DNA from: Malacoraja senta
Lineage: Eukaryota
Length of the DNA stretch: 64,000 bases
NCBI GenBank assembly: GCA_038087875.1
Contig: CM075988.1
Location: 3,286,001 to 3,350,000, forward strand
Direction of reading: 5' to 3'
Of this stretch, positions 7,101 to 63,500 are shown in pieces (position 1 is the first letter of the stretch; each line of letters opens with the position of its first letter). A program made the translations under genes and the position numbers. The notes below the pieces were generated by a model. The model made no database searches, was not told the DNA's origin, and saw only the letters and a program-made list of their open reading frames with translations.

Positions 7101-7372
7101 CGTAACTCCTCATAAAATAAAGATCAAACTTCAAACTTAGGTAAGTTCTCGTTTAATCTTACTATTTTACTTCGGAGTCACGTGAGTGACTACGTGAAGA
7201 TTTTAAAGCTTTGTGATTTCATGCCGTAGATCAATCCCGGCTTCTCACTGCATTGATTGACACGGAACGAGAATAATCAATCATGCATTCATAATAACAT
7301 TTGTACCACAAATGCAGTAATTCATTTATTTTAATAATGAAATTAATCAGATCCCCTTTAAACCAGAGGAAT

Positions 7373-8293: not shown

Positions 8294-8339
8294 GCCACAG
8301 TACGCTCAGACAGTCCTTGCCCCAGAAAAGGCCTTCTTA

Positions 8340-11430: not shown

Positions 11431-12169
11431 GGCGTCTGTGGAAAAAATCCCCACAGACCCACAGTAAACGGACCTGGATATACTTTAAAAAAGTTTCTAC
11501 TTACCTTGTAGTTGAAAAACTACAATTCCACTAGAGGAGCTCTGCTCCTACCGTCCGTTTGCATCAAGGCGTCTGACGTAATGACGCGCAGGCGCACTGG
11601 CGGGGTTCTTCACGTAGTCACTCACGTGACTCCGAAGTAAAACAGGCCATCTCGGCCCTTCAAGTCCATGCCGAACACTTTTTCTCCCCTAGTCCCATAC
11701 AGAGTTTGTATGTTCTCCCCGTGACCTGCGTGAGTTTTCTCCAGGTGCTCGGGTTTCCTCCCACACTCCAAAGACATACAGGGTTGTAGGCTAGTTGGCT
11801 TCGGTAAAATTGTACATTGTCTGCCAGTGTTAATGTGCGGGGATCGCTGGTCACCACGGACTCAGCGGACTGCAATGTAATCTAGGAAGTTTGGTGGTGA
11901 CAATTTGTAGAGAACTTCATGAGAGCTTTGTTCTACTTGGAGTAGACGGATCCCCAGATTCACAAAGATCTGCCTGAAATTTAGAAAGTACTGATCAAAG
12001 CTCCGGACTGTAAGTTAACCATTGTTCATGATATATGTATTTTTACTTCTATTTCTTTTTTACTGCACACACTGAAATGGACACTGGTTGAGGAACGTTT
12101 TTTTGTTTCCTCTGGGTATGCGAATACTCAGGAAATGACAATAAAGATATACAATACAATACAATACAA

Positions 12170-26985: not shown

Positions 26986-29886
26986 CATTGTTTGGCAGAA
27001 GCCAATTAACCTACCAACCCGCATGCCTTTGGAATGTGGGAGGAAGCCGAAGCACCCGGAGAAAACCCACACAGGTCACAGGGAGAAGTTACAAACTCCC
27101 CACAGACAGCACCTGCACTCAGGATCAAACCTGGTTCTCTGGCGCTGTTAGGCAGCAACTCTACCGCTGCAACACCGTGTTGCCCCACGTGTAAATTAGT
27201 CTAGGGCATTGGGTGTACAATGTTTACCTTATATGGTTATATGGTTACAGTGGAGAGAATGACTCTAGAGAATGATCCTCATTTCATATTGTTCCATTCA
27301 CCTCTCATACCTGTATGAGTCGACCACCATTGACTCATTTCTGCCAATGCCAGGATTTGAAGATGTTCTTCTATTTATTCGTATTGCCCCTGATTTGCTT
27401 CGTCCCTCAAAGTATTTCTTTGTTACCACTGCCCCTCCTCCTTGAAATATGTTTCACTTTTAGGACAAAGGACATTTAATGTCACATACACCAATTGGTG
27501 CAGTGAAATTTGAGTTGCCATTGCAGCTCACAAATAAAATAAACATAACACTATGGAATTTAACATTAAACATAAAAAACATCCCCCACAGCGGGATCTA
27601 CGTTTCCCACTGTGAGGGAAGGTAGCAAAGTTCAGTCCAATTCCTCTATTTTCACCCGTGGTCAGGGCCTATTTGAGGTCGCCACTACGGCGGCACGATG
27701 TTTCAGGCCCTCTCGACGGGATGATGGAACTCCGGCATCGGAAGAACACTCTCAGCGGCTTGGAGTTCCGAAACGGCCGCTTCTAGATAACAGTTCAGAT
27801 AACATTTCTAGATAATATTTTTTCCTTCATATTTCTTGTATTTCTGGTTATACTAGAAAACAGCTGCAATCATTGAGGAACAAATATTGGTTTTGTATGG
27901 AACAAAATAGGTAAGTGCAGATAACACCCATATCATGCACTGTAAGCAACAGGAATGTACGCTACAAAAAAAATTTGAGATGCAGAATAAAAATAAATTT
28001 TATGGAATTTATGTAAAAAATTCACAAAATGTACACTTGAAATTTTCCAGCAGTAATCAAACAAACTTCATTGTACATATCACAACTGCCGTGAACATGA
28101 TAGGCGTCACAAGTGATTTGCTTGGGAAACTGATAAGACAATGTCTTCTATTGGTACAACAACCCTCTCTGTCTGCTTCCATTCAAGTTGGCTTTGTACA
28201 AACCCGATTAGTACGGGTGTCAGAGGTTATGGGGAGAAGGCAGGAGAATGGGGTAAGGAGAGAGAGATAGATCAGCCATGATTGAAAGGCGGAGTAGACT
28301 TGATGGGCCGAATGGCCTAATTCTACTCCTATTCCTTATGACCCTTTATTAATTCCTACCCTATAAACTTCACCCCACATGTTCATTAACAACATCCAGC
28401 TATCATCAACTGAGTTGTTTCTCCATGATCAGACATTGACATGACCCACAGTGGTTAACACCCTATCCCACCGTCACTCCAGTCTCTGTCCTGATTTAGA
28501 CCTTCGACTTTAGAGATACATTGTGGAAACAGGCCCTTCGGCCCACCGAGTCCGCACCGATCAGTGATCACCCCGTACACAAGCACTATCCTACACACAC
28601 AAGGGACAATTTACAATTTACAGAAGCCAATTAACCTACAAACCATTGAAGTGTGGGAGGAAACCAGAGCACCCAGAGATAACCTACGTGGTCAGATGGA
28701 GAATGTACACACTCCGTACAGACAGCACCCATAGTCAGGATTGAACCCAGGTCTGTGGTTCTATAATGCAGCAACTGTGTCACTGTGCTGCCCATCTGTG
28801 ATCTTTCTGCAACTCCATGCAATGTAATCTCATCCGACCAAGCGATATCACACGCACACCACCACCACCACCAAATGTGCGGACTGGGATGCGACTCATA
28901 GCTACCCTGATCCAATATGGTACTGAACCGGAAATTTAATTCAAGCAAAGACACCAGATGCTTGAGTAACTCAGCGGGTCAGGCAGCATCTCTGGAGAAC
29001 ATGCATGAGTGTCGTTTCGGGTCGGGACCCTTCTCAGATCTGACTCGTTGAGTTACATAGAAACATGGGAAATATTTGCAGGAGGAGGCCATTAGGCCCT
29101 ACGAGCCTGCACGACCATTCATTGTGATCATGGCTGATCATCCACAATTGATAATAACAAACATTTTGGGGTACTTGACAAAATGGAGGATTTCTGCTTC
29201 TGTAAAACCTGCTTGGTATCTTTTGCAAAAAGCTGCAAGCCCATGAGGACCATGGCTACTGAAAGTCTGTGGCCTGGGAAGGTGTTGAATAGAGGTTGAT
29301 GTCCAGGTGGCCTTTAATTGTTAATATGTATGAGAGTTTGCAGAAGGAGCTAGGTCTTGTTGTAAATGCATGCTTGGGATTGGTTGAGGAAATGATTGGA
29401 TACAATAATGTTGCAGAGTCTTCCCGCTGCTAATTATGATTGGTCCAGGAGATGGGCCTCACCAAAGATGTTTACTTTACCTGGGGATATTGTTTCTTTA
29501 CTTAACAGAAATGTTTCCCCCTAAGTGCTTTGTGTTGAAACTATATTATGTGATATTATATGATTGGGTTAGGGAACTGTCATTCAATGTGTTCTGCAGT
29601 CCTTATATATAATTGGCTTGTCGGGGGTTGCCCGCCCCCCATGTATTTTCGCGCCATGGGTCTGTAAGGGTATAAAAGAGTGGGCAGCACGTTCGGGTGA
29701 GCCGATCTTCTGGGGTATGTGTTCTATTTGCACGAGGCTGTTGGGCACGAGTAAGTAGAGAAAAGGATTGGTCCCGCAGTATTGGACGGTATTGTATTGG
29801 TATTGTGTAATAAAAGATAGTTGGATTTCTAGTGCTCGTATTTGGTGTTTGACTGAACCAGACTAAGTTTAGGACCGGAATTACAT

Positions 29887-38020: not shown

Positions 38021-40631
38021 ATGGGAAACCAGATCGATACTGCGACAGATCCAGAAAGCCCATTGCAAATAATTTGCAGTAAGTTTCCAAAAGAGGCTGA
38101 AAGATTAAAGCATTTCTTGGGAACTTTGAATAAGAAATTAGGAGGTGAGTTGTGGGCTGAAGGAGGGGTTGGAATCCTGGAGGGCGTAAGATATATTGAC
38201 AAGATTATTTGGCAATTTAGTCAAAGTGAAACTGCAAAGGAACTCAATGGACCGTGGAGACAATATTATGAAGGATTAAGAGAATGTAGAGAGGCTGCAA
38301 TAATGGCAAATTGGCAGGAGGCAGCTTTAAAACTTGGAATATAATTAAAAGATGATGAAGGGAATAAACCTCTGGATACCTTGAAAAAGAAATGTGCATG
38401 TGCTTATGAAGATCATAGGGAACGGGAGACTGAGAGGACTCCTGATGGAAAATTGGCACGTAGAATTAGAGTTGAGGGACTCGTTAGTTGGCTTTGGTTT
38501 GGAAGGGGAGACGAGGAATGTCTGGAAGATTGGGAGAATATCCGTATTAAGAGAAGTTTGCAGCCTCCAACTTACGCCCCTTTAGGCCACCTCCACCTCC
38601 AGCACCTCATGTACATAGATACATAGATACATAGAAAATAGGTGCAGGAGTAGGCCATTCGGCCCTTCGAGCCTGCACCGCCATTCAATATGATCATGGC
38701 TGATCATCCAACTCAGTATCCCGTACCTGCCTTCTCTCCATACCCCCTGATCCCTTTAGCCACAAGGGCCACATCTAACTCCCTCTTAAATATAGCCAAT
38801 GAACTGGCCTCAACTACCCTCTGTGGCAGAGAGTTCCAGAGATTCACCACTCTCTGTGTGAAAAAGTTTTTCCTCATTTCGGTCTTAAAGGATTTCCCCC
38901 TTATCCTTAAGCTGTGACCCCTTGTCCTGGACTTCCCCAACATCGGGAACAATCTTCCTGCATCTAGCCTGTCCAACCCCATAAGAATTTTGTACGTTTC
39001 TATAAGATCCCCTCTCAATCTCCTAAATTCTAGCGAGTATAATCCAAGTCTATCCAGTCTTTCTTCATATGAAAGTCCTGACATCCCAGGAATCAGTCTG
39101 GTGAACCTTCTCTGCACTCCCTCTATGGCTATAATGTCCTTCCTCAGATTTGGAGACCAAAACTGTACGCAATACTCCAGGTGTGGTCTCACCAAGACCC
39201 TGTACCTCATAGACCTTCTGTGCCTGCAGCACCACCCACACCCCCTGCTGATAGTGATCCCGTAGTATCACCTGCTCCCCAGACAGCAGCACCAGCACAG
39301 AGTTCCTTGACCCCAACAGCTCCAGCACTAACAGACACTCCAGTGGAGCTCGGAACAAGGAGCAAGACAAAGAAATTAACTCCCGTATTTCAAGAAAAGG
39401 GAAGATCACCAGAACCAGTTTATGAACCTAAACCTAGGAGAATAAGACGACCACCCAGAGAGAAAAGACATGTTTTTAAAAAGTACCGCCTTCCCCCTAG
39501 TGATGAGGATGAGACATCGGAGGGTGAAGTAGTCTCTGGGGACACTGAGAGTGAGTCAGACTTAGGAAAAATTATGCAGGCTGAGTAACTATCTCGCCGC
39601 CAGTTCCCAGTTAGGGAGATGCCTAAACCAGCCTTTGATCCGACCAATGCAGTTGGTGCCAACAATCGTCGAACCATGTGTATTTACTATGGAAACCTAA
39701 TGAAATGATGGCAGTACTGAGTTAAATACCTGACAGAAAGAAATCAACTGCTTCCTTTGTGGACTATCTCCGGACTACTATGCATGTCTATCACGCGGAT
39801 TCGAGAGATTTGTGGGCTGTAATACATAACTCCTACAGTCAGAGCATTCCAGGTTCCTTGCCACTTTAGGACACACAATTCACGAGGCACTGGCCAATGT
39901 AATTGCCAATAACAATGCAAGAGAAGATGCAGTTTTAACTGCCCTTGCCACTACAAAAGCCAATAGACATCTGGAATAGGTTTCTGGATGTTAGACCAAA
40001 GAAAGGAGAGGGAGCAGATGAGTTTCTAGAAAGGTTCTCGGAACTATATATGGATCAGTCGGGAGATTTGAATTTTCGAAATGGGGCGAATTCTCCCCAA
40101 TACTGTGCAATTTTATTTAACTGGCTGCCAACTAATGTAGCAGAAGCAATCAACACAAACCACATGGATTGGTCAGAGAATAGTGCAAATCAAATGGCCC
40201 GTGCAGTTAGGTATCATTGGACAGATATTAGACAGCAAGAGAACCAGCCCTAAATTAAGGCAAAAAACTGAATACGTAATGAAAAAGGAAGCGCCGATCT
40301 AATTTAGACTTATGGAATAGTCCTCAGACAAGAGCAAGGCATGATGGGCCAGAATGGGCAAGGGCACCAGAACCGGAGTATCCAGGTCACCCTGATGAAC
40401 CACCTCTCCTTAGAACCAATTGCCCCAAGACACTAGAGAGGGAATAGTGTATTGGGACCAGACGAATGTTATACTTGCGGCGGATTAGGTCACTGGACTA
40501 GGGTGTGCCCGACACAAAAATGACAGGACGCAGGGGGCCAACAGAGAGAGCAGAGAAGGAGCTGGCAAGGAAATCAGGGACAGAGAAGACGAACACTCTT
40601 CTCTCATAATAATCCATTCTCACGTTCCTGA
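38021..40631 (+). pseudogene. gag: ERV gag (interrupted by CR1)
   Basis: MGNQ myristoylation-type start, PPTY motif, capsid-like remnant (39945-40253), CYTCGGLGHWTRVC knuckle at ~40467, TGA at 40629. Confidence 0.85.
38611..39203 (-). mobile_element. CR1 3' fragment inside ERV gag
   Basis: ORF 38713-39210 with CR1 C-terminus; (catagata)n tail; nearly identical to 1752-2080. Confidence 0.92.
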
Positions 40632-42580
40632 TTAGCTAACTTGGTGGTGAACGGATGAAAATCTGATGAAGAACCTGTACTATCATTGCGAGTAGAAGGA
40701 AGGATATGCACCTTTTTGGTAGATACTGGGGCATCTCTGCAATCAATTTATAACCTTCCTAAGTCTAGTGAAGTTCAGAGCCTGTCCGGATTCCAGGGAC
40801 AAGTTTGCCGGTACCCCATCTCTATGCCAGTCGAAGTGGTGTATCGAAGCAAGGCAATAAAATATAGATTCGTAAGAACAAATGAATTGGATTGCAATTT
40901 AATGGCTAGAGATTTGTTCTGTGCATTTTAATTGAAAATTGAATGCAGCTACGGTGGAATAATAGTGACCCCATGGGCTCCCAAAAGGCAGTGCTATTCA
41001 TCAGTGGTCCTTAGACTTAGTAGATGAACCCTGCTTCATATCACATTGGCCTATGATAGAAGTGGCAAAAATAAAGAATTCAAAACCTTTTTCAGACCTC
41101 AAGAAGGAAGAAATTGGAATGTGAATATTTTGGCATGGGTAACAGGACAAGAAGGAACTGCAGAGTACGTTAAGATACCCCTAGATTTATGGAAACGAGC
41201 TTCAGAGGTTGCTCCACACATAATAAGGAAGGTGAATTTTCCCAACAAGTGCGAAGGACTTGGGAACAATGGTAAAGAAAGCAATTGATCTGGCAGATTA
41301 GAATGTATATGAAGAACAGAGCTTGTTTGACCAATGTACTGTTGAGTTTTACCAGACCCCGAGGACAGTTGTTGCCCAGCTACGCCAGCATCTGGGGAGT
41401 GAGGTATGTGAGTATGTGGACCGACCGGCAAGTGTGGGCAGAAGACGCAACTCAGGTAGGATGTGTTCGCATTGATCCCATCCAGGTAGCTCTCCAGAAA
41501 GGGGTGACACTGCCTTCGATACAACAGTACCCATTGAAACAACAGGCAATTCCTAGTATAGGCAAGTTAATTTGGGAATTGCTGGAATAAGACATCTTAG
41601 TGAAGTGCCAGTCTATTTGCAACACACCAATCCTTGCTGTGCCCAAGGCAGGGAAAGAGGGCCAGTACAGGCTGGTCCAGGACTTGAGATCTGTCAATGC
41701 AGTGGTAGAACCGTTCCATGCCTTGGTGCCAAACCCGGCTCATATTCTAGCTTTGATTCCAGCGGAAGCGAAGATCTTTTCAATTGTAGACCTGCAACAT
41801 GCCTTCTTATTACCTCTGCACGGACACAGCCAGTATTTATTTGCCTTTACTTACAGGGGACAACAATATATGTGGACAAGACTACCTCAGGGATTCATTA
41901 ATTTGCCCACCTTGTTTTCTCGATTTCTTCAAGGACAGTTAAGCACCTTAAACTTTAAAAGTAAATCCACTCTAGTTCAATATGTGGACGACTTGTTGGT
42001 GGCTAGTTTAGATGAGCAGAGCAATCGTGAGGATGCTACTCAATTATTGAACCACTTGGCAACCTTAGTATATGTGGTCTCTCAGTCCAAAGTGTTAACG
42101 GCTCAACAAAAAGTAACATTCCTGGGAGTGATAATTTCGGCCACGGAAAGAAGTCTAGAGAGGAGTAGAATTGAACCAATTTGTGAATTTCCTGTACCAA
42201 AAGAGGCGAAGCAGATGAGACAGTTGCTCGGTATGGTGAACTACTGCCAATCCTGGATCCCTAATATTGCACTAGACACCAAGGAATTGACTCCTTATAC
42301 TAGCCTAGAGGGCGAATTTCAGTAGTCCGAAGAAGCTCAGAAAGCTTTCGAGAATTTAAAGAGATCTTTAATGCAGGCTCCAGCACTAGGAAGGCCATTC
42401 TACGATAGACCCTTCCAACTTTACTGTACCATCCTTTCCGAATGTTAAACTGCAGTCCTCACCCAAAAACATGAGGATAAGCACAGACCAGTGGCTTATT
42501 CTTCTTCAAAGCTGGACCCAGTAGCGAGAGGACACCCAATATGCAGCCAGATCTAAACAGCAATCTATAATTGTCTACAG

Positions 42581-42645
42581 CAGTGGTGGGGAACCTTTTC
42601 ATGTTGGAATGCCGCATTAAGTTAGCTGTAATCTAATAAGGCCAG
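42581..42645 (+). mobile_element. Short hAT (Charlie-like) terminal fragment at a deletion within ERV RNase H
   Basis: Starts cagtggtggggaacctttt, resembling Charlie-type termini. Confidence 0.45.
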
Positions 42646-42995
42646 GAACGCAAGGTTTTAGTGCAAAGATGATGAGGCAGACAAAAAGTTCATGTAACAA
42701 GTCTCCCACGGAAAAGCCAATGCCAACCATCCAGGAAAATATTCAGTTGCAGGAGGAAGCTCCTGAAGGGGATATAAGATTATGGAAACAGCTTGGATGT
42801 ACAAGAGATTGCATGTCAGGATAGTGGGTCACTCCGGCAGGGCAGACATGTATGACAGATCCTCTTGCAGTTTGGGTTGTGGACTGTATGCATTTTGCCA
42901 CTCACTGTAGTGCGAGAGCAATTGGTGATGCTCTTTCAGCTACTTGGTGGCATCCAAGATTACAGACTTTGGCCCAGAAAGTGAGTAGCTGCTGT

Positions 42996-45900
42996 ATTTT
43001 ACTTCGGAGTCACGTGAGTGACTACGTGAAGAAGACCCGTCAGGGCGCATGCGCGTCATTACGTCAGACGCATTGGCGCTCACGGACGTGAGGAGCAGAG
43101 CTCTGCTCCTCTAGTGGAATGTAGTTTTTACAACTCCAAGGTAAGTAAAACACTTTTTGGGAGTTTTTTAGGTCCGTTTGCTGTGGTGGTCTGTTGCGAT
43201 TTTTTCACAGGCACCATGAACAAAACGGGCAAGGGCAAGAGGCGAGCCGCAAAGCCGATAGAGAGCCGCAGGAATGCGGTTGGTGAAGGGCTGCCTCATA
43301 CCCCTGTAACAGTCGCTGGGTGGGAGCGGGGCGACTGTGGACTTGTGTATTTAGAAAAAGAACGGAGCCAGCGTCAGTTGGGCGCTGGCCAACATGCAAG
43401 TCATGTCCATGGAGCAAGAGTCAGTTTGGGATTCACCTCCAAGGCTGGATACCACTTTCTGAGTGGATATTCCAAATGGAGAACCTGTACACTGGTTGCT
43501 CCAACAAGACATACTCCAGGAGGAGTGATGTCAGAGCCAGGCTGCAGAAGCCAGTTCAGCAGCACCTAGTAAAGGGCTGCTTGATAGCACCCTCATTGAT
43601 GAGGCGCGTGCACAGGGTCAGCAGAGTTCTCCGATACAAGCGAAGACGGCAGCTACCAGATGTTCTTTTTCTGGCAGTACGATTCGCTGCTCTGTGAGAG
43701 TTCTGACCCTGACTCTGACGGTGAGGCAGATACAAGCGAAGACGGCAGCTGCCAGATGTTCTACTCCTGGCAGTACGATTCGCTGCCCCGTCAGAGTCAG
43801 GAGAGTCAAGGCTCTGTCTTACCTGTTTGCGGTCATCGGCGGTGAAGCGCGGCGTCGCCGGTAGCGAGGACCGCGCGGCAACGGCGAGAGCGTCGAGCCT
43901 ATCCACCGGAGCGCCGCACGGATGTTGCGCGGGGGCCGAGTTAATTCAAACACGGCGGGTCCCACGTGCTTGCGGTAAGTAAAAAAAGGGCGGGCCGACT
44001 GCGATGACGTCAGCCCGCCGCACGTGACTCACCAGCGGCGGCTGTGGCGGCGGCCATCCTGATCGCGGCGCTGTAGCGGTGGCTGTGCCTGCGGCCGTGC
44101 AGCACACGTGCCTCACTGGCGGCGGCACGTGCGTCACTGGCGGCGGCACGTGCGTCACTGGCGGAGGCTGTGGCAGTGGAGGTTTGACGCACGGCGCTCG
44201 AGCCATACTGGCGGCGGCCCGTGCGAGCGGCCGTGCGCACTCGTGCATCACTGGTGGAGGTTGTGCGGTGAGTATTTAGTTTTGGACATTGTTGATTTGA
44301 TTTTAGCACCGCGCGGTGTTGGGAACACCGCCGCACGGCCCGGGAATTGTACTTTCTCACGAGTGCGCGGTCTATGGCGGCAGATTCCTCCCGTTTCGCC
44401 GCCATAGACCGCAGACTCGTGAGACAGGCCTTTAACTGGGAGAAGAAGTGGCCTCTACGATCAACTATTTTGTCTTCCATCAGCTCCAGTAGCTTACGAT
44501 GGATGAAAATGCCAAAAAAGCACGAGACCCCGTATTGCGTATTGCTGAAAGTACTAGCAATGAACCAAGATATAAGGGGTCAGATGGGCGAGGGCATGTG
44601 AGCCTAAGAAATAAAACTGCAGAGAATATTGAAGCTACTGGGTTGAGGAACAACTGCATTTTTGCAAGAACAATGGATGGAGGCCAGGGATGGAGATGCA
44701 TCAAGAGGCACTAGGGTTGCTATGTAGCGCCCACTTCGAGATGAATTGTTTCAGGAAGTATGCCATTCGGCCTACCATCATCCCCAAGTTGCAGCAACTC
44801 TGTAAAGCCCAGAAATGTGCAGTCACTCAACTTACTCTTCGGAGAAAAACCTCATGAAACGTGGGAAAGAGTTGGATGATGAGGCAAAAACAGCAAGGTT
44901 GATCAAAACATAGATTGTCGGCAAGTCTGTGAAGAGGAGGTATCCTTTCAGACATCATACAGAATCCTGGGCCTACACCAGGAACAAGTCGACCATTGAA
45001 GCAGGGGCACAGTTGGCATCCTGCAGCGGGAACACAAAAAAGCGTGGGTTTTCCTGCCAGGAGCCAGGGACCACAGGGCACTCAGGTGACAAAGGAGGTA
45101 GGTGGACCCGGTTCTCATGGAAACATATTAAGGCAAAAACTGCCAAATATTGGAAGCAAATTACTTCGGATTCATTATTCTGAGTATTATTCAAAGGTTT
45201 CGAATTGATTCGATCCAAATAGTGATTTGCCATCCAGCATGTTCCTAGCAGAACACTCCAATTTCACAAAAAGAAGTGATGGAGGTTCAAGCTGCATTTG
45301 AAAACTTGTCTATAAACAAGTAATTGAAAGGTTGGTTTATCAAAACCACCTAATTGTGTTTACATTTTCTCGACCTAAAAAGGTGAGGAGTATTTTAGAT
45401 CTGATAAGTCTTTAAAATTTTGTGAAGTATAGACACTTCAAAATGGAAACTTTGAGACTGCCAAAAAACTTATTTCAAAAGATGTTATATGGCACCTATA
45501 GATCTGAAAGATGTATATTACTCAGTGTCTGTTCATTTGTAAGATTACAATATTTGAAATTTATCTGAATTAAACAATTATGGCAAGTCAAAGTTCTGTC
45601 TAATGGGTTAACTTCAGTTCCTAGAATTTCACTAAATTGGTAAAACCAATTTTGGGGCTAATTAGAGTCCAAGGACAGATGTTGATGGCTTAACTGGATG
45701 ATGTCCTAATTAGGATGAACAAGAGAATTAGTGAGTTATCTCTCTCAATTGTTCAATCCACTTTTGAAAGTTTTGGGTTTAATTCATCCAGTGAAATCAT
45801 GGTTAACGCCACTTACAACAATTGATCATTTTAATTTCACAATAGATTCAATTGACATGGTAGTAATTTTACCCAGGGTAAAGGGTAGAGCTGATTGATG

Positions 45901-48449
45901 GTTGCATTAAGCTGTTGAAAAAGCAACAATCTTCAATTAAGACAGGTGGCCAGCTTGCCTGGAAAATTAGTGTTATTTACAGCAATACGATATGGGCTAT
46001 TGCACTACCAGCAGCTACAGACGGCAAAAAGAAAAGGCACTAAGATGCATGGTGGCCATTTTGATAGGCCATGCAGTTAAACAACAAATGCTGCCTCTGA
46101 TTTGCAGTGGTGGGTTTATAATGTCTCCAGTACTTCGAGCAAGATACTGATTGAACAGCCTTCCATGGTCTTACAGACTGATGTCAGTGCACTAGGATTG
46201 GTGCCACTGAAATGGTATCCATCTGTAGATAGATGGAATATGGAAGAGGCATTATTTTTTGCAGACATGGAGAATCAACGTTTTACAGCTGTTGGAAGGC
46301 TTATGAGCTCCAAGCTTGTTGTTAATACAACTAATCTGCATGTTCAGCTTCAAATTTACAATACTACAGCAATGGCATGTATTAATCGTATGGGTGGAAT
46401 TAAGTTGGTGTCATGTGACAAATTGGCTAATCAAATCTGGACTTGGTGTGTTGACAAATATTTGGTTTCAGCTATTGGGTACCAGGTAGATTCAATATAG
46501 TAGCAGACACCAGGTTATGGGAATTTCCATGATAACAAAGAATGGATGTTGAATCTTAAGATTTTATTGATATATTAGTCAGATTTGGGAAGCCAGATAC
46601 TACTTGTTTCCATCCAGACTCAATCACCAATTACAGAGATATGTGTTATGGGAACTACATCGGGAGACAGTAGCAATTGATGCTTTCTCGCTACATTAGG
46701 GTGGTATGTTTTTATATGCATTTTCCATCATTATGTCTCATAAACTGGTGTCTGCTTAAAATGAAGCAGGATGATGCCTCTGGGGTACTTATGGTACCGG
46801 ACTGGTCTACGCAGCCATGGTTCCCTTTGATATTGGAATTAATGACACAGTTTCTGATAAAGGTTCCCAAAAGAAGGGATTTACTGGTGTATCCGATAAT
46901 TGGAGAGTAACATCCATTATATGCCTGTATGGATCTGTTCATTTGCAGGTTTTAAAAAGAGGATTGTCTGGGCATACTGTGGACATGCTTACAGCAGTCT
47001 GGCGGAAGAGCACTCAAAAGCAGTACATTTGCGAATCTGAGGTTGTGACTCTGTAAATGCTGCTTTCCCATAATGTAAAGAATGGGAAAATGTTCTGTGT
47101 ACAAAAGAATATTGAATATTGTACGGCACATGTCTCAAATGTCTTAGGTTTTCTCAACACTCTATTATGAGGGGTTGAGTTGTAGTGCGATTTATTCAGC
47201 CAGAAGTACATTGTCCTCGATTTTTATTGATGGGGTTGGAAAGACATCCTGTTGAGTCTCGTTCTTTCGTTTCCAGATTAATGAAAGGAATTTTAATTCC
47301 AGACCTTCTAACCCTAGGTATGGCAATCTGGAATATAGAGTGGTTTTAAGGTACTTCATCAATGGACTCTTGGTACAATTCTGATTTTGGCCAAATTCAG
47401 CATGAAGGTAGTCATGCTTATGGCACTTGTAACAAGCAGAGTGCAGACATTACAAAAGATACAGATACACAGGATGGAATTACCTCAGGATAATGTTATG
47501 TTTTACATTTATGACCTACTCAAATGAAGTAGGGTCAGGTGTGACAGGATTCAAGAGTGTTTTATTAGCATATTCCATGGATTCATGTCTATGTGTTAAG
47601 ACATATTTGTTGCAATACATTGAGGCTACAAAGGTCTTATGAAATATGAAAACAAGATTGTTTATCATTCACGAAAAACCATACAAGATAGTGTCAGTTC
47701 AGACTATTTCAAGATGGTTAAAACAAGTCTTGGTTGCTGCAGGTGTTAACAGTGATGTTTTTTACATCACATTCAGTTTAGCAGCAACATCGGCGGCCAG
47801 GGTGAAGGACGTCCCGTCGACCATATTCTCGCAGCCGCCGGGTGATCTAATAAGTTGGTGTTTCAACACTTTTACCATCGGCCTATTGTCAATACAGGGC
47901 TGTTTGCAGATACTATATTAAGTTCTGCTTAAATTCCCCTGGGTTAAAGGGGATATTGTTAATTCTATTATTCAAATAAATGAATTACTGCATTTTTTCA
48001 TGCAAATGTCATTAATGCATTATTGATTATTTATCGTTCCGAGTCAATCAATGCAGTGAGAAGCCGGGATTTGAATCTGCGGCATGAAATCACAAAGCTT
48101 TAAAGTCTTCACGTAGTCACTCACGTGACTCCGAACTAAAATAGTAAGATTAAACGAGAACTTACCAGTTTGAAGTTTGATCTTTATTTTATGAGGAGTT
48201 ACGTTGGTGATTACGTGCCCACCACGCCCAACACTCTTTCATAAAGGTCAGATGGAAGTTCTAAAATGTACTCGTTTTTACTATGTTACTATGTTACTTC
48301 ATTATTGGTGTTTTGTGATTTCACACCGCTGCTTTGAAGATTGACGCGCATGCACCCTGACGGGTCTTCTTCAAGTAATCACCAACGTAACTCCTCATAA
48401 AATAAAGATCAAACTTCAAACTGGTAAGTTCTCGTTTAATCTTACTATT
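42996..48449 (+). mobile_element. DIRS-C: DIRS1-type retrotransposon with frameshifted ORFs, inserted in the ERV integrase zinc finger
   Basis: Same termini and ICR (~48107-48217) as DIRS-B; colinear gag, RT, MT and YR remnants. Removal restores tgt-att-att-tgt (C-I-I-C). Confidence 0.93.
43809..44432. mobile_element. Harbinger-type MITE inside DIRS-C gag
   Basis: Imperfect TIRs aggctctgtctta / tgagacaggcctt; TSD tca/taa; removal restores G-E-S-L-G-E-E; internal 21-bp repeat cacgtgcgtcactggcggcgg. Confidence 0.7.
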
Positions 48450-50332
48450 ATTTGTCAGAAATATAATCATGGGAAAGGAGTCGGTTGTGAGGATGGAAGA
48501 ACATCTTTGCCCATGGGTCCTTTTGAAACTCTTCAAATGGATTACATCAAGCTGGAGAAGTGCCAAGGATATAGATATGTACTTTCGATTGTCGATGTAC
48601 TCAGCAAATGGATTGAGGCCTATCCAACACTTGATAACAAAGCGGCTACTGTTGTCAAGGTGCTTATGCGAGAGATTATCCCTAGATTCGGTAATCCATT
48701 CGGTTTAGTTCTGACAATGGTCCTCATTTCATTAGGCAAATTAACAAAGAATTCTGTGAACAGCTGGACATCCAGCAACAACTGCACTGTGCTTATCCAC
48801 CACAGATGGCTGGACTTGTCGAAAGGGCAAATCAGACCCTGAAAACTAAATTAGCTAAATTAAAGGCAGAGACAGTAATTAGTTGGATGAAATTACTCCC
48901 AAGAGCTTTGTTTCAGATGCATGTCACGCATGCAGGGAAATCGAGACTAAGCCCAGCTGGAATTGTTTATGGACATCCCTTAAGAACCCCGTGGAACCAA
49001 AATGCCCTAATGTTGTCAATTTCCATCACATGACTACAGAGATGACCAATTATGTTCTGACCTTGACTCGGGCATGAAGGGATTTGCATTCTAGGGTGGG
49101 AGCAGCATACAGTGAATTACCTCCTTTGGTTTCTTCCATTAAGGTCAATCCTGGTGATTTTGTGATGGTGAAAAATTGGGTGAGGAAAGGTTTGGAGGCT
49201 CGATGGAAGGTCTCCTAATGAACCCAACTGCTCTTAAGGTAGAAGGAAGGAATGCGTGGGTCCATCTTCACCATTGCAAGAGTATTGATGGAAGAGCTAA
49301 CTTGGTTTCTTCAAGGAATTTCTTAAGTATAGGAACATCATACCCATCAAGAGTCAAGAGTACATCAAGCTGATGTGATGGATGAAGAGGATTCATGCCC
49401 ATGCAAACTCGTGAGGTGGAGACTCGTCAGTCAGGAATCATTGAAACCATGCCCATGAAAACTCGGGAAGTTACTTAGAGTTCTGACACAATTACATCGC
49501 TATTATTGTTAAATTGTATTAGAAGAACCGTTGTTATCTTACTTTGTTTGTTATCATATATGATAAAAGAGGGGAATGATAATATTAGACATTTTGGGGT
49601 ACTTGACAAAATGGAGGATTTCTGCTTCTGTAAAACCTGCTTGGCATCTTTTGAAAAAAGCTGCAAGACCATGAGGACCATGGCTACTGAAAGTCTGTGG
49701 CCTGGGAAGGGGTTGAATAGAGGTTGATGTCTAGATGGCCTTTAATTGTTAATATGTATGAGATTTTGCAGAAGGAGCTAGGTCCTGTGCCAAATGCATG
49801 CTTGGGATTGGTTGGGGAAATGATGGGATACAATAATGTTGCAGAGTCTTCCCGTCGCTAATTATGATTGATCCAGGAGAGGGGCCTCACCAAAGATGTT
49901 TACTTTACCTGGCGATAATGTTTCTTTACTTAACAGAAATGTTTCCCCGTAAGTGCCTTGTGTTGAAACTATGTTATGTGATATTATATTATTAGGTTAG
50001 GAAACTGTCATTCAATGTATTCTGCAACCCTTATTGATAATTGGCTTGTAGGGGATTTCACCCCCCCCCCCCATGTATTTTCGCGCCAAGCATCTGTAAG
50101 GGTATAAAAGAGTGGGGAGCACATTGGGGTGTGCCGATCTTCTGGGGTGTGTTCGATTTGCGCAAGGCTGTTGGGCTGGAGTAAGTAGAGACAAGGATTG
50201 CACCCATGGTATTGGACTAGGTATTGTAGTGGTATTAGTCTTGTGTAATAAAAGAGTGTTGGATTTCCAGTGCTCGTATTCGGTGTTTCACTGAACTAGA
50301 CTAAGGGGGGTAAGTTTAGGACCGAAATTACA

Positions 50333-52611: not shown

Positions 52612-53005
52612 ACAGTGGGGGGGAGGGAGTGACAAATTGGGAGTTTCAAGATGGAGTTAAAGGGGAAGTGAGTACAGGAAAAGTTACGAAAGACTCCCAA
52701 ATTAATGGGAAGGAAAGTTCGAGAAGGGATAAGAGAGTAAGGTCAGGGCCAATAGTGACTGGTGTGAGAGAGGAGGTGAATACCGAAGTCAACGTGCTGT
52801 ATATGACTGTGCGAAGTATAAGAAATAAAGAGGATGAGCTTGAGGCTTAGTTAGAAATTGGCATATATGATGTTTTGGGAATTACAGAGACACGGCTGCA
52901 AGAGGTTTTCACGCCAAGGGTCTGTAAGGGTATAAAAGAGTGGGGAGCACATTGGGGTGTGCCGAAATTCTGGGGTGTGTTCTATTTGCGCGAGGCTGTT
53001 GGGCT

Positions 53006-54232
53006 CCAGTAATGACAGTGGATCAACAATGGCAGGTACTTATGGGAATAATACAGAAGGTGCAGGATCAGTTCATTCCAAAGAGGAAGAGAGATTCCAA
53101 GAGGAGTAAGGGGTGATCGTGGGTGACAAGGGAAGTCAGGGACAGTATAAAAATAAAAGAGACGTACAACATAGCAAAGATGAGCGGGAAGCCAGAGGCT
53201 TGGGAAACTTTTAGAGCAACAGAAGATAACTAAAAGGGCAATACGGGGAGAAAAGAAGAGGTACGAAGGTAAGCTAGACAAGAATATATGGGAGGATAGT
53301 AAAAGCTTCTTTAGGTACATGAGGAGGAAAAAATTAATTAAGACCAAAGTTGGACCCTTGAAGACTGAAACAGGTGAATTTATTATGAGGAACAATGAAA
53401 TGGCAGACGAGTTGAACAGGTATTTTGAATCCGTCATCACTAAGGACGACACAAACAATCTTCCTGGTGTACTAGTGGCCAGAGGATCTAGGGTGCCTAA
53501 GGGACTGAAGGAAATCCACATTAGGCAGAAAATGGTGTTGGATAGACTGATGGGACTTAAGGCTGATAAATCCCCAGGGCCTGATGGTCTGCATCCCAGA
53601 GTACTTAAGGAGGTGGCTCCAGAAATCGTGGACGCATTGGTGATCATTTTCCAATGTTCTATAGATTCAGGATCAGTTTCTGTGGATTGGGGGGTAGGGG
53701 GTAGAGGGTAGAGGAAGGACATTCTTGCTATTGAAGGAGTGAAGCGTAGGTTTACAAGGTTAATTCCCGGGATGGCGGGACTGTCATATGCTGAGAGAAT
53801 GGAGCAGCTGGGCTTGTACACTCTGGAGTTTAGAAGGATGAGAGGTGTTCTCATTGAAACATATCAGATTGTTAAGGGCTTGGACATGCTAGAGGCAGGA
53901 AACATGTTCCCGATGTTGGGGGAGTCCAGAACCAGGGGCCACAGTTTAAGAATAAGCAGTAATCCATTTAGAATGGAGACAAAGAAACACTTTTTCTCAC
54001 AGAGAGTGGTGAGTCTGTGGAATTCTCTGCCTCAGAGGGCGGTGGAGGCAGGTTCTCTGGATGCTTTCAAGAGAGAGCTAGATAGGGCTCTTAAAAATAG
54101 CGGAGTCAGGGGGTTTGGGGAGAAGGCAGGAACGGGGTACTGATTGGGGATGATCAGCCATGATCACATTGAATGGCGGTGCTGGTTCGAAGGGCCAAAT
54201 GGCCTGCTCCTGCACCTATTGTCTATTGTCTA
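53006..54232 (+). mobile_element. CR1 ORF2 fragments with 3' tail
   Basis: KSPGPDGLHPRVLKE; CR1 C-terminus; (tattgtc)n tail. Confidence 0.9.
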
Positions 54233-54281: not shown

Positions 54282-56929
54282 ATTTTACTTGAGAGTCACG
54301 TGAGTGACTACGTGAAGAAGGGCCGTCAGTCCGCATGCGCGTCATTACGTCTGAAGCATGCGCCAACGACTGACTGGCAGGTGCGCTGCGTCCTTCCAGC
54401 GGTAAGTTTTAAAAACTGCAGGTAAGTGTTTTCTAAAACTACTCTGCGGTCGTATAGGCAGGTTCAGTGAGTCTTGTTTTTCAACAAGTTGGACCCAGCT
54501 ATGTCTAAGGTGAAGATACGGTCTGCGGGGAAGCCGGCTACCGAAGACCGCGGTAATGCGGGTAGCGGGCTGCTGTTCATTCGTGGGGCTGCAAAGTGTC
54601 TCCCTCGCTGGAGGGGGGAGTACACCGGGTCAGTTTTTTCCTGACTCCGAGTTTGGAGGCACAGTGGGTGAGCATTCCCAGGGGCACGGGTCTGAAGTGC
54701 CACTATTGGCATCCAGATTTGCCATATCCTCACCATTAGGAGCACCCCTGGATGAAGACCTGGCCAACAATATTAATTATTTGGCCTCTCACCAGCTCAA
54801 AGACCTGACTATGGAGGAGACCACCAACAGGTACCCCTCTTCTGCAAACTGTGCCTCCCTCAATGTGCCGGCCGTGAACCACTCCATCTGGGGTCACATT
54901 GGAGCGGGTGTCAGAGCCCAGGAAGTAAAGCTCCAGAAAGTCCTGAAATTACTGGCCTCTGTTATCACGGCCTTTGCTAGGTCTGTAGATGGGGAACTAC
55001 TGACCGACACTCAACAGGACGCAGTGGCATTACTGTGTAATGCTCACTTCGAAATAAATTGCCTGTGCAAGAACGCAATCCGGCCGGCACTAAACCTCAA
55101 GTTTGCTGTGCTGTGCAAGGCCAGCAACGTCCAGCCGGCCAATTATCTATTTGGGGAAGATCTGCCAAGGCAGGTCCGGGAGCTGGACGATGAGGCGAAG
55201 ACCATCCACCTCATGAGTAGAGCCCAAACCACACCAAATATGTGTCCTGGGAGCCAGACCCAGGGGCAGAGGCAGTAGATGCGTTTTCTCTACATCGGGG
55301 AGGAATTTTTCTGTATGCATTTCCCCCATTTTGCCTCATTGGCCGATGTTTGGCAAAAATCAAGCAAGACAACGCCACAGGCATTTTGGTAGTGCCTGAC
55401 TGGCCTACACAGTCTTGGTTTCCACAAGTCCTGGGAATGATTACACAGCCTTTCCCCATGAGCAATGAACTACTCGTTCACCCAGTAACGGGGAGCAACC
55501 ATCCACTTCATGACCGAATCAATTTATTGGTTTGCAGATTCTGAGGAGACCATAACTGGGGCTCGGACTGTCTAAACGAACTGTGGATGTGATGACAGCG
55601 GCCTGGAGGGACAGTGCACAAAAACAGTACGTCTCTCACATCAAGAAGTGGGAGATGTTCTGTTCTGTCTCAAATATCTCGTAAGATACAGCACGCATCA
55701 CGGATGTCCTGGAGTTCCTATCTGCCCTGTACTATGATCAAAAATTAAGCTACAGTGCCATCAATAGTGCCAGAAGCACACTATCTTCCTATTTAGTGCT
55801 GGGGTCAGGGCACCAGTCGGCAGGGACGCACCCTTTAATAACTAGGTCCATGAAGGGCATTTTTAATTCCATACCAGCCAGGCCCCAGTGCACGGACATT
55901 TGGGACATGAGCGTCGTGCTTACACTGCTTCGCCAGTGGGTGCCAGCTCCCTCTCTACCCTTATCTAAGCTCACCCTAAAAGTGGTCATGCTAATGGCGC
56001 TGGTAACTGCACAACGAGTCCAGACGTTGCACAAGCTGCACCTTGACTTCATGACCACCAATGTAAATTTAATAACCTTTTTCATTGAGGGCTTGATCAA
56101 ACAGAGCAGGCCAGGGGTGCCAGGGCTCGAGCTAGAGTTCCTGGCATACCCCGAGGATCCACGGTTGTGTGTCATATCACATATACACCATTACATAGAG
56201 TCACCAAGGGCCTCAGAGGCTCTGAGCAATCGGTCCTAATCAGTTACAAAAAGCCTCACCACAAGGTATCAGCACAAACCATTTCCAGATGGTTAAAGGA
56301 GGTACTGACGAGTGCAGGAGTGAACATTGACACTTTAAAATCTCACTCCACCAGGGCTGCATCTACGTCGGCAGCGAGAGCAATGGACGTTCCCCTCGAT
56401 AACATCCTAGCGGCTGCAGGATGGGCCAATGAACGGATGTTCCACCGGTTTTACAACAAACCTATTGCACGTACCATTTTAGATTCTGTTTTGTAGTTTC
56501 CCCCAGGATGGGAGGGGTTACTATTATTTTTATTTTCATATTAAAGCATCAGTATTATTACGCGCCTGGACTCGTATCCGGCGTGAAATCACAGAGCTTT
56601 AAAATCTTCACGTAATCACTCACGTGACTCCGAAGTAAAATAGTAAGATTAAACGAGAACTTACCAGTTTGAAGTTTGATTTTGATTTTACGAGGATTTA
56701 CGTGCCCACCGCTCCCTCCCTCATATTATCAAGGTCATCTGGTAGTTCCAGTTCTTCAAAATCTTACTATCCTCAGGTCAACTTCTCTTATCTGTGATTT
56801 CACACCGCTGCTTTGAAGATTGACGCGCATGCAGACTGACGGCCCTTTTTCACGTAATCGCTCATCGTAACTTCTCATAAAATCAAGATCAAACTTCAAA
56901 CTGGTAAGTTCTCGTTTAATCTTACTATT
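54282..56929 (+). mobile_element. DIRS-D: internally deleted DIRS (gag joined to MT end, then YR; no RT/RNase H), inserted in CR1 RT
   Basis: Termini and ICR present. Gag ORF 54556-55278 switches to YVSWEPDPG at ~55232. Frameshifted YR 55590-56496 (HSTR, AGW, FY). Flanks rejoin as PLFKKGGREKTG-HY-RPVS. Confidence 0.93.
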
Positions 56930-58303
56930 ATAGACCAGTTAGCGTGACATCGGTGGTGGGGAAGATGCTGGAGTCAATTATAAAAGATGAAATAGCAACA
57001 CATTTGGAAAGCAGTAACAGGATTGATCTGAGTCGGCATGGATTTACGAAGGGGAAATCATGCTTGACTAATCTTCTGGAATTTTTTGAGGATGTAACTA
57101 GGAAAATGGACAAGGGAAAGCCAATGGATGTAGTGTACCTGAACTTTCAGAAAGCATTTGATAAGGTCCCACATAGGAGATTAGTGGGCACAATTAGAGC
57201 ACATGGTATTGGGGGTAGAGTGCTGACATGGATAGAAAATTGGTTGGCAGACAGAAAACAAAGAGTAGGGATAAATGGGTCCCTTTCAGAATGGCAGGCA
57301 GTGACTAGTGAGGTACCTCAAGGCTTGCTGCTAGGACCACTGCTATTTACAATACACATTAAGGATTTAGATGACGGGATTAAAAGTAACATTAGCAAAT
57401 TTGCAGATGACACAAAGCTGGGTGGCAGTGTGAACTGTGAGGAGGATTCTATGAGTTGCAGGGTGACTTGGACAGGTTGGATGAGTGGGCAGATGCATGG
57501 CTTATGCAGTTTAATGTGGATAAATGTGAAGTTATCCTCTTTGGTGGCAAAAACTGGAAGGCAGATTATTATCTGAATGGTGTCAAGTTTGGAAAAGAGT
57601 AAGTACAATGAGATCTGGGGTCCTTGTTCATCAGTCACTGAAAGTAAACATGCAGGTACAGCAGGCAGTGAAGAAAGTGAATGGCATGTTGGCCTTCATA
57701 ACAAGAGGAATTCTGCAGTTGTACAGGGCCCTAGTGAGACAACACCTGGAGTATTGTGTGCAGTTTTGGTCTCCAAATTTGAGAAAGGACATTCTTGCTA
57801 TTGAGGTAGTGCAGCATAGGTTCACGAGGTTAATTCCCGGGATGGCGGGACTGTCATATGTTGATAGAATGGAGCGGCTGGGCTTGTATACTCTGGAATT
57901 TAGAAGGATGAGAGGCTATCTTATTGAAAGATATAAGATTATTAAGGGTTTGGACACGCTAGAGGCAGGAAACATGTTCCCGATGTTGGGGGAGTCCAGA
58001 ACCAGGGGCCACAGTTTAAGAATAAGGGGTAAGCCATTTAGAACAGTGATGAGGAAAAACTTTTTCACACAGAGGGTTGTGAATCTGTGGAATTCTCTTC
58101 CTCAAAAGGCAGTGGAGGCCAATTCTCTGGATACTTCCAAGAGAGAGTTAGATAGAGCTCTTAAAGATAGTGGAGTCACGGGATATGGTGAGTAGGCAGG
58201 AACGGGATACTGATTGTGGATGATCAGCCATGATCACAGTGAATGGCGGTGCTGGCTCGAAGGGCTGAATGATCTACTCCTGCACCAATTGTCTATTGTC
58301 TAT
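56930..58303 (+). mobile_element. CR1 RT to 3' end (begins ~54235, left of DIRS-D)
   Basis: HGF..GKSCLTNL, FQKAFD, PQG..LGP.LF, KFADD, C-terminus and tail. Confidence 0.93.
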
Positions 58304-60585: not shown

Positions 60586-63500
60586 TGTAAAGAAGCTGAG
60601 TCTGACTCACTTGTAGCTTTACTTAACGTTTAATAATAAGACAGGTTAAACACTTTCCAGCACTGACTGCACCCAGTCTATCATCATGCTGGAACCAAGG
60701 GTGGAGCACATGGGAGATAGAGTTCTTATACTTGATAACTAAGGCGTGGTTAGTGGTACTGAGGTAGCTATATTATTGGTTGCATGCATAAACCATCTAC
60801 ATCCTTCCCCTCAGAATCAAATGCACATGGAGGCAATCAGGATAGTGTTATTACAATAAACGTGCGAATTTAGACAAAGTCGCCGTATCGGACAGGCGGC
60901 TTAACAATGCGACCCGAACGCGTACGTATAGCACCTCCCCCCCCCCCCCCATCAGAAAGAAGAGAAGCCGTAGCGGAGGCAGGCAGGAAAGTCAAGGGAG
61001 GGGGAGATGCAGCTAGAGCGGGAGAGATAGGAGGGGGAGGACGTGCAGGAGGTGAAAGCGACCGGCCAAGACCAGGAGGCAACGAAACAGGAGACCGCAC
61101 TAAGCGAGGGGAATGGGGCATGCATGGAGCAGCAGGGTGATCATCGGCAGCAGGTGGAAACGACAACGGAGGAGCATAGGGAGCCGCAGGAGGAGGCTTT
61201 GGCTCGTTGACGGCCAACAGGTGCTGACGGCTTCGTCGGTAGGTAGTCCCTTCGTAATCCACCAGGTAAGATCTTGGAGAGTCGTCCACGCCAGTCACCG
61301 TCACGAGGCGGGAATAGCCGGTGGTGGTCCGCATCCGAACGACCTGCCCGGGTAGCAGAGGCAGCAGAGGGCGGCAGGACCTGTCGTGGGAACGCCGTTG
61401 AACTTCATGTTTATGATCGATCCGTCTCTGGACGGTGGCAGGATCGAACACTTTGGGTATCAGGGACTGCTGGGCGATGGGCATAGGTGGTCTTGTCACT
61501 CTGGACATCAGACGTTGGGCAGGGGAACCCATAAGCGGGTCCCATGAAACGTTACGTAGGTTATGTAAGTCCAGGTAAAAATCGCTGTCTGACGGGCGGG
61601 ACTGCTCCATCAGGCGCTTAGCACTCCGCACGGCCCATTCGGCCAGGCCGTTACTCTGAGGGTACTCAGGGCTGCTGGTGTAGTGATGGAAGTTCCACCT
61701 TGCAGCGAAAGATTTGAACTCGGCACTTGTGAATTGCGGTCCATTGTCGGTCTGCAAGCGGACAGGGACGCCGTGGGCGGCGAAATGCTGATGCATCTTA
61801 GCGATGACCCTCCCGGAGGTGGTGGACGGAAGGAGGTCAATCTCAAACCAATTGAAGAAGGAGTCCACCAGGACGAGAAAGTACTTACCCCGCCATTCGA
61901 ATATGTCAGCAGCCAGCGATGTCCAAGGCATGGCTGGCGCCGGCTGCTGCAGAAGAGGTTGACGCTGCTGGTGTGGGGTAAGGTTGTTGCAGGAGGCACA
62001 GGAGGACACCCGGTTCCTGATGTAGTTGGCCATGCCAGGCCAGTAGAACTGTCCTTGGGCATGAGAAACAGTGGCCTCGACTCCAGGATGACCACTGTGG
62101 GCTGCGTTATAGTATAGATCGTATAGAGAGGCTGGGACCACAACTTTGTGGCCTTTGACGATAACCCCATCCTGGATCACCAGCTCGTCGCGGACCAGGA
62201 AGAAAGGTTGTGCGCCCGATGGCAAATTGGTACGTTTGATGGGCCACCCGCGCTTGATGACGGCAGCCTGCTGCTGCAGTGCGGGGTCCGCGGCGGTGTG
62301 CTCGATCAGGCTCTGTAGCTGCTTGGTTGGAACAAAGTTGACATTAAGTACGAGTAGGTTTTCCTGCTCGTAAGGGTGGCGGTCACAAGATGCCCCGTGG
62401 GGCGCGAGAAAGTGTGTCAGCAACATGCATCTCCGTTCCCTTCTTGTATGTGATTTCAAAATCAAAACGCTGGAGTTGCAGCATCATACGTTGTAATCTG
62501 GCAGGGGCAACATGTATGGGTTTGTTAAGAATGGTTAACAATTTGTTAAGAATCTACAGGCAAAGAGAAAGTCTTTGAATTTGGAACAAGCAAACACCAC
62601 AGCCAGGAGCTCCTTCTCGATCTGAGCATATCGTTGCTCCGTGTCGGTCATGGTCCGAGAGGCATACGAGACCGGTAGCAGGAAGCCATCGCTGTAAAGC
62701 TGCAGGCAAGCAGCACCCAGTCCAAAACGAGAGGCATCACAGGTGACAACAATGGGACGGCGTAGGTCGAAGAATTTGAGTGTTGGGGTGCTGATCAGCT
62801 TAGACTTCAGACATTCGAAAGCCTGCTGATGTTGTGGAAACCAGGACCAGGCGATGCCTTTCTTAGTTAGTTGTCTCAGGGATGAGCTCAGCTCACTGAG
62901 ATTCGGTACAAACTTCCCGAGGTAGTTGACCATGCCCAGGAATCGTTGTAGACCAAGCACGTCAGTTGGGGCTGGCATTCGGATATTGCAATAGTCTTTT
63001 GCGGGTCGGGTTTCAGTCCCTTGGAAGTGAAGATGTGCCCGACGTACGGCACCTCTGAGACACGGAACCGGCATTTATTCTTGTTCAGTTTTAAGTTGAT
63101 CTGCCGGGCACGGTCCAGGACTTTGCGGAGGTTCTTATCATGTTCGGTGGCATTCTCCCCATAAACTAGGATGTCGTCAACGATGATGGCGCAAGGCATG
63201 TCAGCGAACCGCTGTTCCATGGATCGCTGAAACACTTCACTGGCAGAGTTAATACCGAATGGCATCCGTAGAAACTTAAATCTGCCATAAGGAGTGGAAA
63301 AATTGTCAGGTTGGAGGAGCGCTTATCGAGTAGTATTTGCCAAAAAGAGCTTTTGCATCAAGGACAGAAAACAACCGTAGCCTGGCCGACCTGAGCTGCG
63401 ACGTCCTCTACGGTTCTCATGGGGTAGTGTGGCCGCCTGATCGCGAGGTTCAGGTCTTTGGGGTTGATACACACCCGTATCTCGTTTTTGTCCTTTTTCA

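Follow-up and report, generated by a model that had tools for sequence, protein, structure and literature searches.

Decayed remnant of a probable CNPase-type 2H phosphoesterase domain between protease and reverse transcriptase in an endogenous retrovirus of Malacoraja senta

Retroviral Pol is usually thought of as protease, reverse transcriptase (RT)/RNase H and integrase, plus dUTPase in some viruses. The window analyzed here, a stretch of 64,000 nucleotides from Malacoraja senta (GenBank assembly GCA_038087875.1, contig CM075988.1, positions 3,286,001 to 3,350,000 of the forward strand), harbors an endogenous retrovirus (ERV) that raises the question of what was once encoded between its protease (PR) and its RT. 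An earlier, sequence-only reading proposed a 2H phosphoesterase domain at this place, serving as an RNA-processing or immune-antagonist module, the second motif of which had decayed from HIT to HII. We thus asked whether such a domain is present, to which 2H proteins it is most closely related and what it might have done.

Frame translation of the window gives LHITLAY (41034-41054) and APHIIR (41211-41228), whose histidines occupy 41037-39 and 41217-19. These histidines lie 60 codons apart in one shared frame, in which the protease with its motifs LVDTGA (40716) and LMARDL (end 40916) is read as well. Both motifs are therefore found where they had been reported and lie between protease and RT, but the gap that contains them is larger than the approximately 400 bp originally given, as 515 bp separate LMARDL from VWAE, the RT landmark that begins at 41432 and is followed by QYPL from 41525. 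Measured from the catalytic motif of the protease, the distance to VWAE is 716 bp or about 239 codons. The domain extends over approximately 40986-41397 and is split between two frames. The reading frame shifts near 41004 and 41032 and again at about 41245 and about 41420, the last of these shifts preceding RT. Stops in the region are located at 40929 and 41299, and a further stop at 41025 is part of a short off-frame stretch near 41004-41032. A lone H-x-T/S is uninformative, since the 602 occurrences in the 127,996 six-frame residues of the window, 14 of them with hydrophobic flanks, correspond to chance level. The features of this region are the following.

40986..41397, plus strand: probable CNPase-like 2H phosphoesterase domain with frameshifts and a stop (two-frame profile matches, fold of a relative)
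41034..41048, plus strand: first 2H motif L-H-I-T-L, intact
41214..41228, plus strand: second 2H motif P-H-I-I-R, His kept, third residue not T/S in the window copy
41251..41280, plus strand: AKDLG helix after motif 2 in the next frame, putatively at the position of CNPase helix alpha7 judging from the spacing

The provirus around the domain is heavily damaged, and gag, capsid, zinc knuckle and protease share one frame. Its parts are listed in the order of their coordinates.

38021..40631, plus strand: decayed gag, start MGNQ at 38021, stop at 40629, with a repeat inserted inside
38614..39205, minus strand: fragment of a putative LINE-like repeat in gag (self-matches of 78-98% identity, further copies in the window)
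about 39678-40268, plus strand: capsid region, part of the decayed gag
40467-40496, plus strand: CCHC zinc knuckle, part of the decayed gag
40662..40922, plus strand: retroviral aspartic protease with LVDTGA at 40716, in the gag frame (Pfam RVP, E 1.1e-4, above the cut-off)
41432..42580, plus strand: RT, with YVDD at 41981, plus the connection domain, interrupted by in-frame stops (Pfam RVT_1, E 5.3e-21; tblastn)
42580..42666, plus strand: deletion site, about 250 codons including RNase H removed (tblastn against relatives)
42666..43001, plus strand: N-terminal (zinc-finger) region of integrase, cut by an insertion (tblastn)
42996..48449, plus strand: 5.4-kb DIRS-like retrotransposon (RT and tyrosine recombinase) within integrase (similarity to a second copy)
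48438..49290, plus strand: integrase core and C-terminal part (Pfam rve, E 2.9e-7; tblastn)
49564..50332, plus strand: polypurine tract, then a probable 3' LTR at 49577-50332 that starts with TG (sequence; 88.7% identical copy)

With RVP on one side and RVT_1 on the other, the placement of the domain between protease and RT holds, and Pfam names no family between these two matches in the PR-RT region. The flanking retroviral genes also set the domain apart from the vertebrate CNP gene. Marks of a class I element are gag and pol in one frame, a p30-type capsid, the YVDD RT, an integrase C-terminus of the MLV type and the polypurine tract-LTR end; of these, Gag_p30 (carried by the relative P0008) and MLVIN_C were detected in close relatives alignable to the window. 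At the RNase H deletion, the tblastn alignments of relatives skip from residue 440 to 693 (P0004) and from 656 to 908 (P0007). Only about 290 bp lie between integrase and the polypurine tract and hence env, for which no match was obtained among the relatives compared, is absent or nearly so and was probably deleted. No match to a 5' LTR was found within 35.5-38.1 kb.

The window contains further mobile elements. What is probably a solo LTR belonging to this ERV family lies at 29149-29885 (88.7% identical to the 3' LTR), and another LTR fragment at 52906-53012. The repeat inserted in gag appears to be LINE-like. DIRS-like elements are present in two copies, one inside the ERV integrase (42996-48449) and the other on the minus strand at 6855-11642, which is 72-76% identical to the first and encodes RT and phage-integrase domains; related end fragments are located at 16956-17390, 54282-54427 and 56564-56931. 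Open frames at 14988-16487 (plus strand, 499 aa) and 60870-62483 (minus strand, 537 aa) contain H2C2 and rve integrase domains, are 72% alike in DNA over 461 nt and probably represent Gypsy-like elements unrelated to the ERV. An assembly gap of 200 N occupies 25426-25625.

The seven closest RT relatives, with identities of 65-76% among the best 120 of 269 matches, stem from Heptranchias, Scyliorhinus, Leucoraja and Amblyraja. In a maximum-likelihood tree of 66 RT rows, the window RT falls into a nine-row clade consisting exclusively of chondrichthyan sequences with support of 100/100, which together with the shark and skate origin of the closest relatives bears out the assignment to a cartilaginous-fish ERV. 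The tree comprises 66 of 121 rows, leaving out those with fewer than 190 aligned residues or with neither label nor host name; it is midpoint-rooted, has a weak backbone and is built from database matches only. Because these include no named epsilonretrovirus, 'class I, gamma/epsilon-like' is the finest label supported. The state of the PR-RT interval changes four times on the best tree, with only one change forced by the starred branches, and the order in which the domain was gained or lost cannot be read from the RT tree.

To ask whether the domain is a property of the virus family, relatives were picked by RT alone and their upstream parts inspected afterwards (120 matches, the best 120 of 269). 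A protease motif was present in the same protein for 46 of the 120 RT matches. The PR-RT interval is long (241-316 residues) in 16 of these 46 proteins, every one of which possesses two H-x-T/S motifs 59-63 residues apart, and short (82-158 residues) in the remaining 30, none of which matches the domain profile, itself built from 14 of the 16 long rows. Where the host is named, it is a fish for each of 14 long-interval rows (2 skate, 11 teleost and 1 hagfish) and a tetrapod for each of 16 short-interval rows, in a sample of RT relatives that is biased and contains near-duplicates. The window interval of 239 codons compares to 241 in the Leucoraja relatives, and the 2H core, 49% identical to Leucoraja P0007 versus 39% for the protease, is no less conserved than the protease. 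A profile of the relatives made without the window row matches the window at 41001-41264 (E 2.5e-25) and 41242-41382 (E 1.1e-8) and nowhere else in the 64 kb, so that the homology is not due to chance. The unbroken 75-aa piece of the window finds nine proteins at E<=0.001 among 1.84 billion. A word-index search with this piece gave no match, a weak negative, and one with a five-row alignment of the domain returned only P0003, a weak negative as to other contexts such as Env or host genes.

Some of the relatives have features of their own. Two polyproteins of the hagfish Myxine glutinosa (P0017 and P0047) show the order PR-2H-RT with an RT identity of 46% and both 2H motifs intact. The Heptranchias relative P0003 has a 22-residue insertion between the motifs, bringing their spacing to 82, near the 79 of CNPase; this insertion may be a gene-model artefact. 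In the Amblyraja gene model P0011, 2H domain and RT are followed up by an attached C2H2 zinc-finger array; this is likely an artefact of annotation, with a host-ERV fusion as the less probable explanation.

Pfam names no 2H family for either P0002 or P0127, a PDB sequence search returned no 2H match for P0002, and the alignment search against the PDB was dominated by RT (best 60 of 206 rows). For structure, we employed P0127, a natural and unbroken relative that shares 42% identity with the 75-aa piece of the window (E 4.5e-9) and the predicted model of which has a pLDDT of 81-98 over residues 91-220. In a Foldseek search of the PDB with this model, the rows listed down to rank 48 are CNPase or RICH except for one fungal RNA kinase entry, with a best E of 8e-5. 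In a comparison to 48,161 chains with VIA-align, mouse CNPase (2xmi) ranks first with a Z of 13.3 (rmsd 3.7, 139 aligned residues, model residues 88-226), followed among the 2H proteins by drCPDase (7.0), rotavirus VP3 (6.0), MHV ns2 (5.3), Acb1 (5.2), the Arabidopsis Appr>p CPDase (5.2), penguinpox PDE (4.6) and AKAP18/AKAP7 (4.5). The two-lobed 2H fold is thus predicted for the relative P0127. The window's own unbroken 75 aa also have CNPase on top (75 aligned, chain residues 227-320), at a weak Z of 3.7 that lies within the range of common structural arrangements, and the ends of the aligned range suggest that, if ungapped, the window histidines are in register with CNPase H230 and H309. 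Features from the ESM Atlas lead to fungal tRNA-ligase CPDase clusters at 0.85, which serves as a lead only.

Further likeness to CNPase may lie beyond the motifs. The P0127 model contains a helix at residues 178-190 that is covered by the structural alignment and begins 11 residues after the second His, a spacing that would correspond to CNPase residue 320 and thereby to the position of helix alpha7; a near-invariant Gly follows the second His by 15 residues, with a spacing as for CNPase G324. The identity to CNPase amounts to 10-16% in the Foldseek alignments. The two histidines are 59-63 residues apart in the family (82 in one row) versus 79 in CNPase, or about 80 on average, and this shorter spacing suggests that the substrate groove may differ. 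According to an excerpt of PMC5283653, helix alpha7 is unique to CNPases and blocks the side at which 2-5A binds, and the biological function of CNPase is there called enigmatic. On these grounds, the 2H fold put forward by the sequence-only reading is almost certainly correct, and the domain very probably belongs to the CNPase subtype. In terms of the model, it is not closest to the eukaryotic-viral LigT group, the scores of which (Z 4.5-6.0) contrast with 13.3 for CNPase.

A 27-row alignment sets the second motif of the window copy, which lacks its T/S, beside that of the relatives. Motif 1 reads H-x-T in each of the 25 rows with coverage there; motif 2 has coverage in 26 rows, of which 24 read H-x-T/S. 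The two deviating rows are the window copy and P0126, which is 84% identical to the window and carries a different residue at this position. P0126 may have decayed independently or may reflect an earlier loss common to a sub-lineage, in which case activity could have been lost before insertion. The public sequencing runs of nine organisms contain 20-30% of the words of the region; no RNA run is among those listed, an absence that carries no information on expression. In each of four runs, 481-844 contig pieces are related to it, so that the family is multicopy. At the odd motif-2 codon, the larger part of the depth (64, 70, 98 and 98%) disagrees with the window, as it does in all four runs at both stops, and indels occur near each frame change; this depth share of contig pieces is not a copy number, and no single contig in the four runs spans the stretch. 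The defects are hence mostly private to the window copy, and the change in the second motif, the stops and the frameshifts are best explained as decay after insertion, in keeping with the decay from HIT to HII initially suspected. With its altered motif 2 and its frameshifts, the window copy is a pseudogene of the 2H family rather than a working member, and it makes no enzyme. As natural relatives show both the second H-x-T/S motif and the 2H fold, the questions of fold and motif are answered without a consensus.

We favor, with a probability of roughly 0.65, the reading that what remains here is a decayed, once Gag-Pol-borne 2H domain of the CNPase type which, judging from the modeled fold, would have acted as a cyclic-phosphate phosphodiesterase on RNA ends. 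The cyclic-phosphate chemistry, proposed by analogy, appears likely to about the same degree. A lineage of class I (gamma/epsilon-like) shark and ray retroviruses would have encoded the domain in Gag-Pol between protease and RT. Because Gag-Pol domains get packaged and are then released by the protease, the enzyme would have travelled with RT, entering the virion together with RT and integrase as part of Gag-Pol and probably being set free by the viral protease. At ends bearing a 2',3'-cyclic phosphate, it would have generated a 2'-phosphate and a free 3'-OH in the manner of CNPase and of the fungal Trl1 CPDase, for which the opening of RNA 2',3'-cyclic phosphate to 2'-phosphate is described in part of PMC10275265. 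The likeliest substrates would be RNA ends produced by metal-independent host nucleases, such as those of primer tRNA, of pieces of the genome or of immunostimulatory RNAs with a cyclic phosphate; that any single one of these was the biological substrate is unlikely. One use may have been to make damaged ends of primer or genome extendable again by restoring their 3'-OH, another to remove cyclic-phosphate RNA ends, which stimulate RIG-I/MDA5, NLRP3 and TLR8 (excerpt of PMC8406329). In a wider and rather improbable scenario, the virions of class I retroviruses of fishes would have contained an additional enzyme, a CNPase-like end-healing domain adjacent to RT that converted blocked cyclic-phosphate ends of nuclease-damaged primer tRNA or genome to the 3'-OH required by reverse transcription. 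It would be ancestral to the viruses of hagfish, sharks and teleosts, with a loss in those of tetrapods. The split of named hosts into fishes for long and tetrapods for short intervals, together with the single change forced by the starred branches, would fit this scenario.

Of the alternatives, an antagonist of second messengers would degrade 2-5A, as do ns2, VP3 and AKAP7, or cGAMP, as do Acb1 and the avipox PDE, and thereby blunt innate immunity. These proteins share the superfamily and are among the fold matches, antagonism of immunity is frequent in viral 2H enzymes (excerpt of PMC11410667), and the OAS-RNase L pathway is present in chondrichthyans according to a section of PMC10400998. 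The CNPase score, however, is more than twice as high as theirs, and the model helix appears to lie at the position at which alpha7 of CNPase blocks the 2-5A-binding side. Moreover, 12 of the 14 named hosts of long-interval relatives (11 ray-finned fishes and 1 hagfish) belong to groups without OAS-RNase L, since the same section reports its absence from ray-finned and jawless fishes, an argument that touches 2-5A and not cGAMP. The putative alpha7-like helix and the intact domains in such hosts render the 2-5A reading weak and the antagonist function quite unlikely. The originally drawn link to 2-5A degradation by ns2 and VP3 thus finds no support here, whereas the RNA-processing half of the same proposal is the more likely one.

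A non-catalytic or mainly binding function, either as an RNA/tRNA-binding module or as a decoy against host CNP, seems very unlikely. CNP is listed as a Gag-binding inhibitor of HIV-1 particle formation in a part of PMC7471995, and the T/S of motif 2 is missing from two closely related rows, but both motifs are kept from hagfish via skates to cichlids at RT identities of 40-66%, a pattern expected of a catalytic site. Even more doubtful is turnover of Appr>p, for which drCPDase and the Arabidopsis Appr>p CPDase provide matches in the VIA-align list and which would fit the observation, given in excerpts of PMC4977317, that fish ERVs can carry CNPase or macro domains; the scores of both are far below that of CNPase, and no macrodomain is among the first 25 of 51 Pfam families for 27 relatives. 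That chance motifs in a decayed spacer mimic a 2H domain can be dismissed, as the abundance of H-x-T/S in the window and the lack of Pfam and PDB sequence matches are outweighed by a profile match solely at the domain site, by motif pairs in 16 of 16 long-interval relatives and by the fold match.

Fish retroviruses of a broad range keep a further domain of catalytic type in Pol, one that Pfam misses in P0002 and P0127. Should this domain serve reverse transcription by healing RNA ends, a new step would be added to retroviral biology and a hint on the substrate of CNPase provided. The window locus itself is a dead fossil, and it is the family that matters more.

When compared to characterized systems, the domain is most similar to vertebrate CNPase and fish RICH (2xmi, 1woj, 2i3e), which are the top fold match in two programs and with which it appears to share two histidines in register, a helix after motif 2 and, at the spacing of G324, the near-invariant Gly. 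It differs from them in its low identity, its size of about 140 versus 210 residues, the shorter His-His spacing and its location inside a viral polyprotein. CNP additionally carries an N-terminal kinase-like domain and a lipid anchor, both of which are absent from the viral domain. The CPDase of fungal Trl1 (PF08302; 6u05) is likewise a fold match (E 4.7e-4) and is found among the ESM feature neighbors, but the window offers no ligase or kinase partner, the neighbors of the domain being protease and RT. MHV ns2, rotavirus VP3, MERS NS4b and AKAP7 have in common with it the 2H fold, two H-phi-T/S-phi motifs and carriage by RNA viruses, but are assigned to the eukaryotic-viral LigT group in an excerpt of PMC8406329, and reach a Z of only 4.5-6.0; alpha7 is described as unique to CNPases.

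CNPase or 2H domains in fish retroviruses have already been published. They are described for viruses such as walleye dermal sarcoma virus (WDSV; PMC9503650, in part, citing Mazumder 2002), and ray-finned fish ERVs can encode a CNPase (PMC4977317, in part, citing Basta 2009). In the literature searched, little of it subscription content, we found neither a shark example of the domain nor a functional test of a retroviral 2H domain; a zebrafish ERV paper (PMC8672886) mentions neither phosphodiesterase nor CNP, and the first half of a shark ERV paper (PMC4422223) mentions no such domain. In a BFVD search, the PR-2H model matched Env of walleye epidermal hyperplasia virus 1 (E 1e-6) and of WDSV (2.9e-4) better than it did WDSV Gag-Pol (0.022), the matched region not being displayed. 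Walleye viruses may thus carry the domain in Env rather than in Pol, and walleye retrovirus Pol, chosen as comparator by the sequence-only reading, may be the wrong one; if walleye epsilonretroviruses do carry 2H in Env, the domain would have moved between genes. The domains of fish retroviruses and the one described here are alike in being retroviral, CNPase-type 2H domains of class I-like elements with the same motifs and, in teleost polyproteins, the spacing of 59-63. They differ in that the window host is a cartilaginous fish, its RT forms part of a clade of its own (100/100), the PR-RT interval is about 240 rather than 271-316 residues and the copy is dead. Our analysis hence extends the CNPase-like retroviral domain to a shark and ray clade and, by predicted structure, ties it to CNPase rather than to the 2-5A antagonists.
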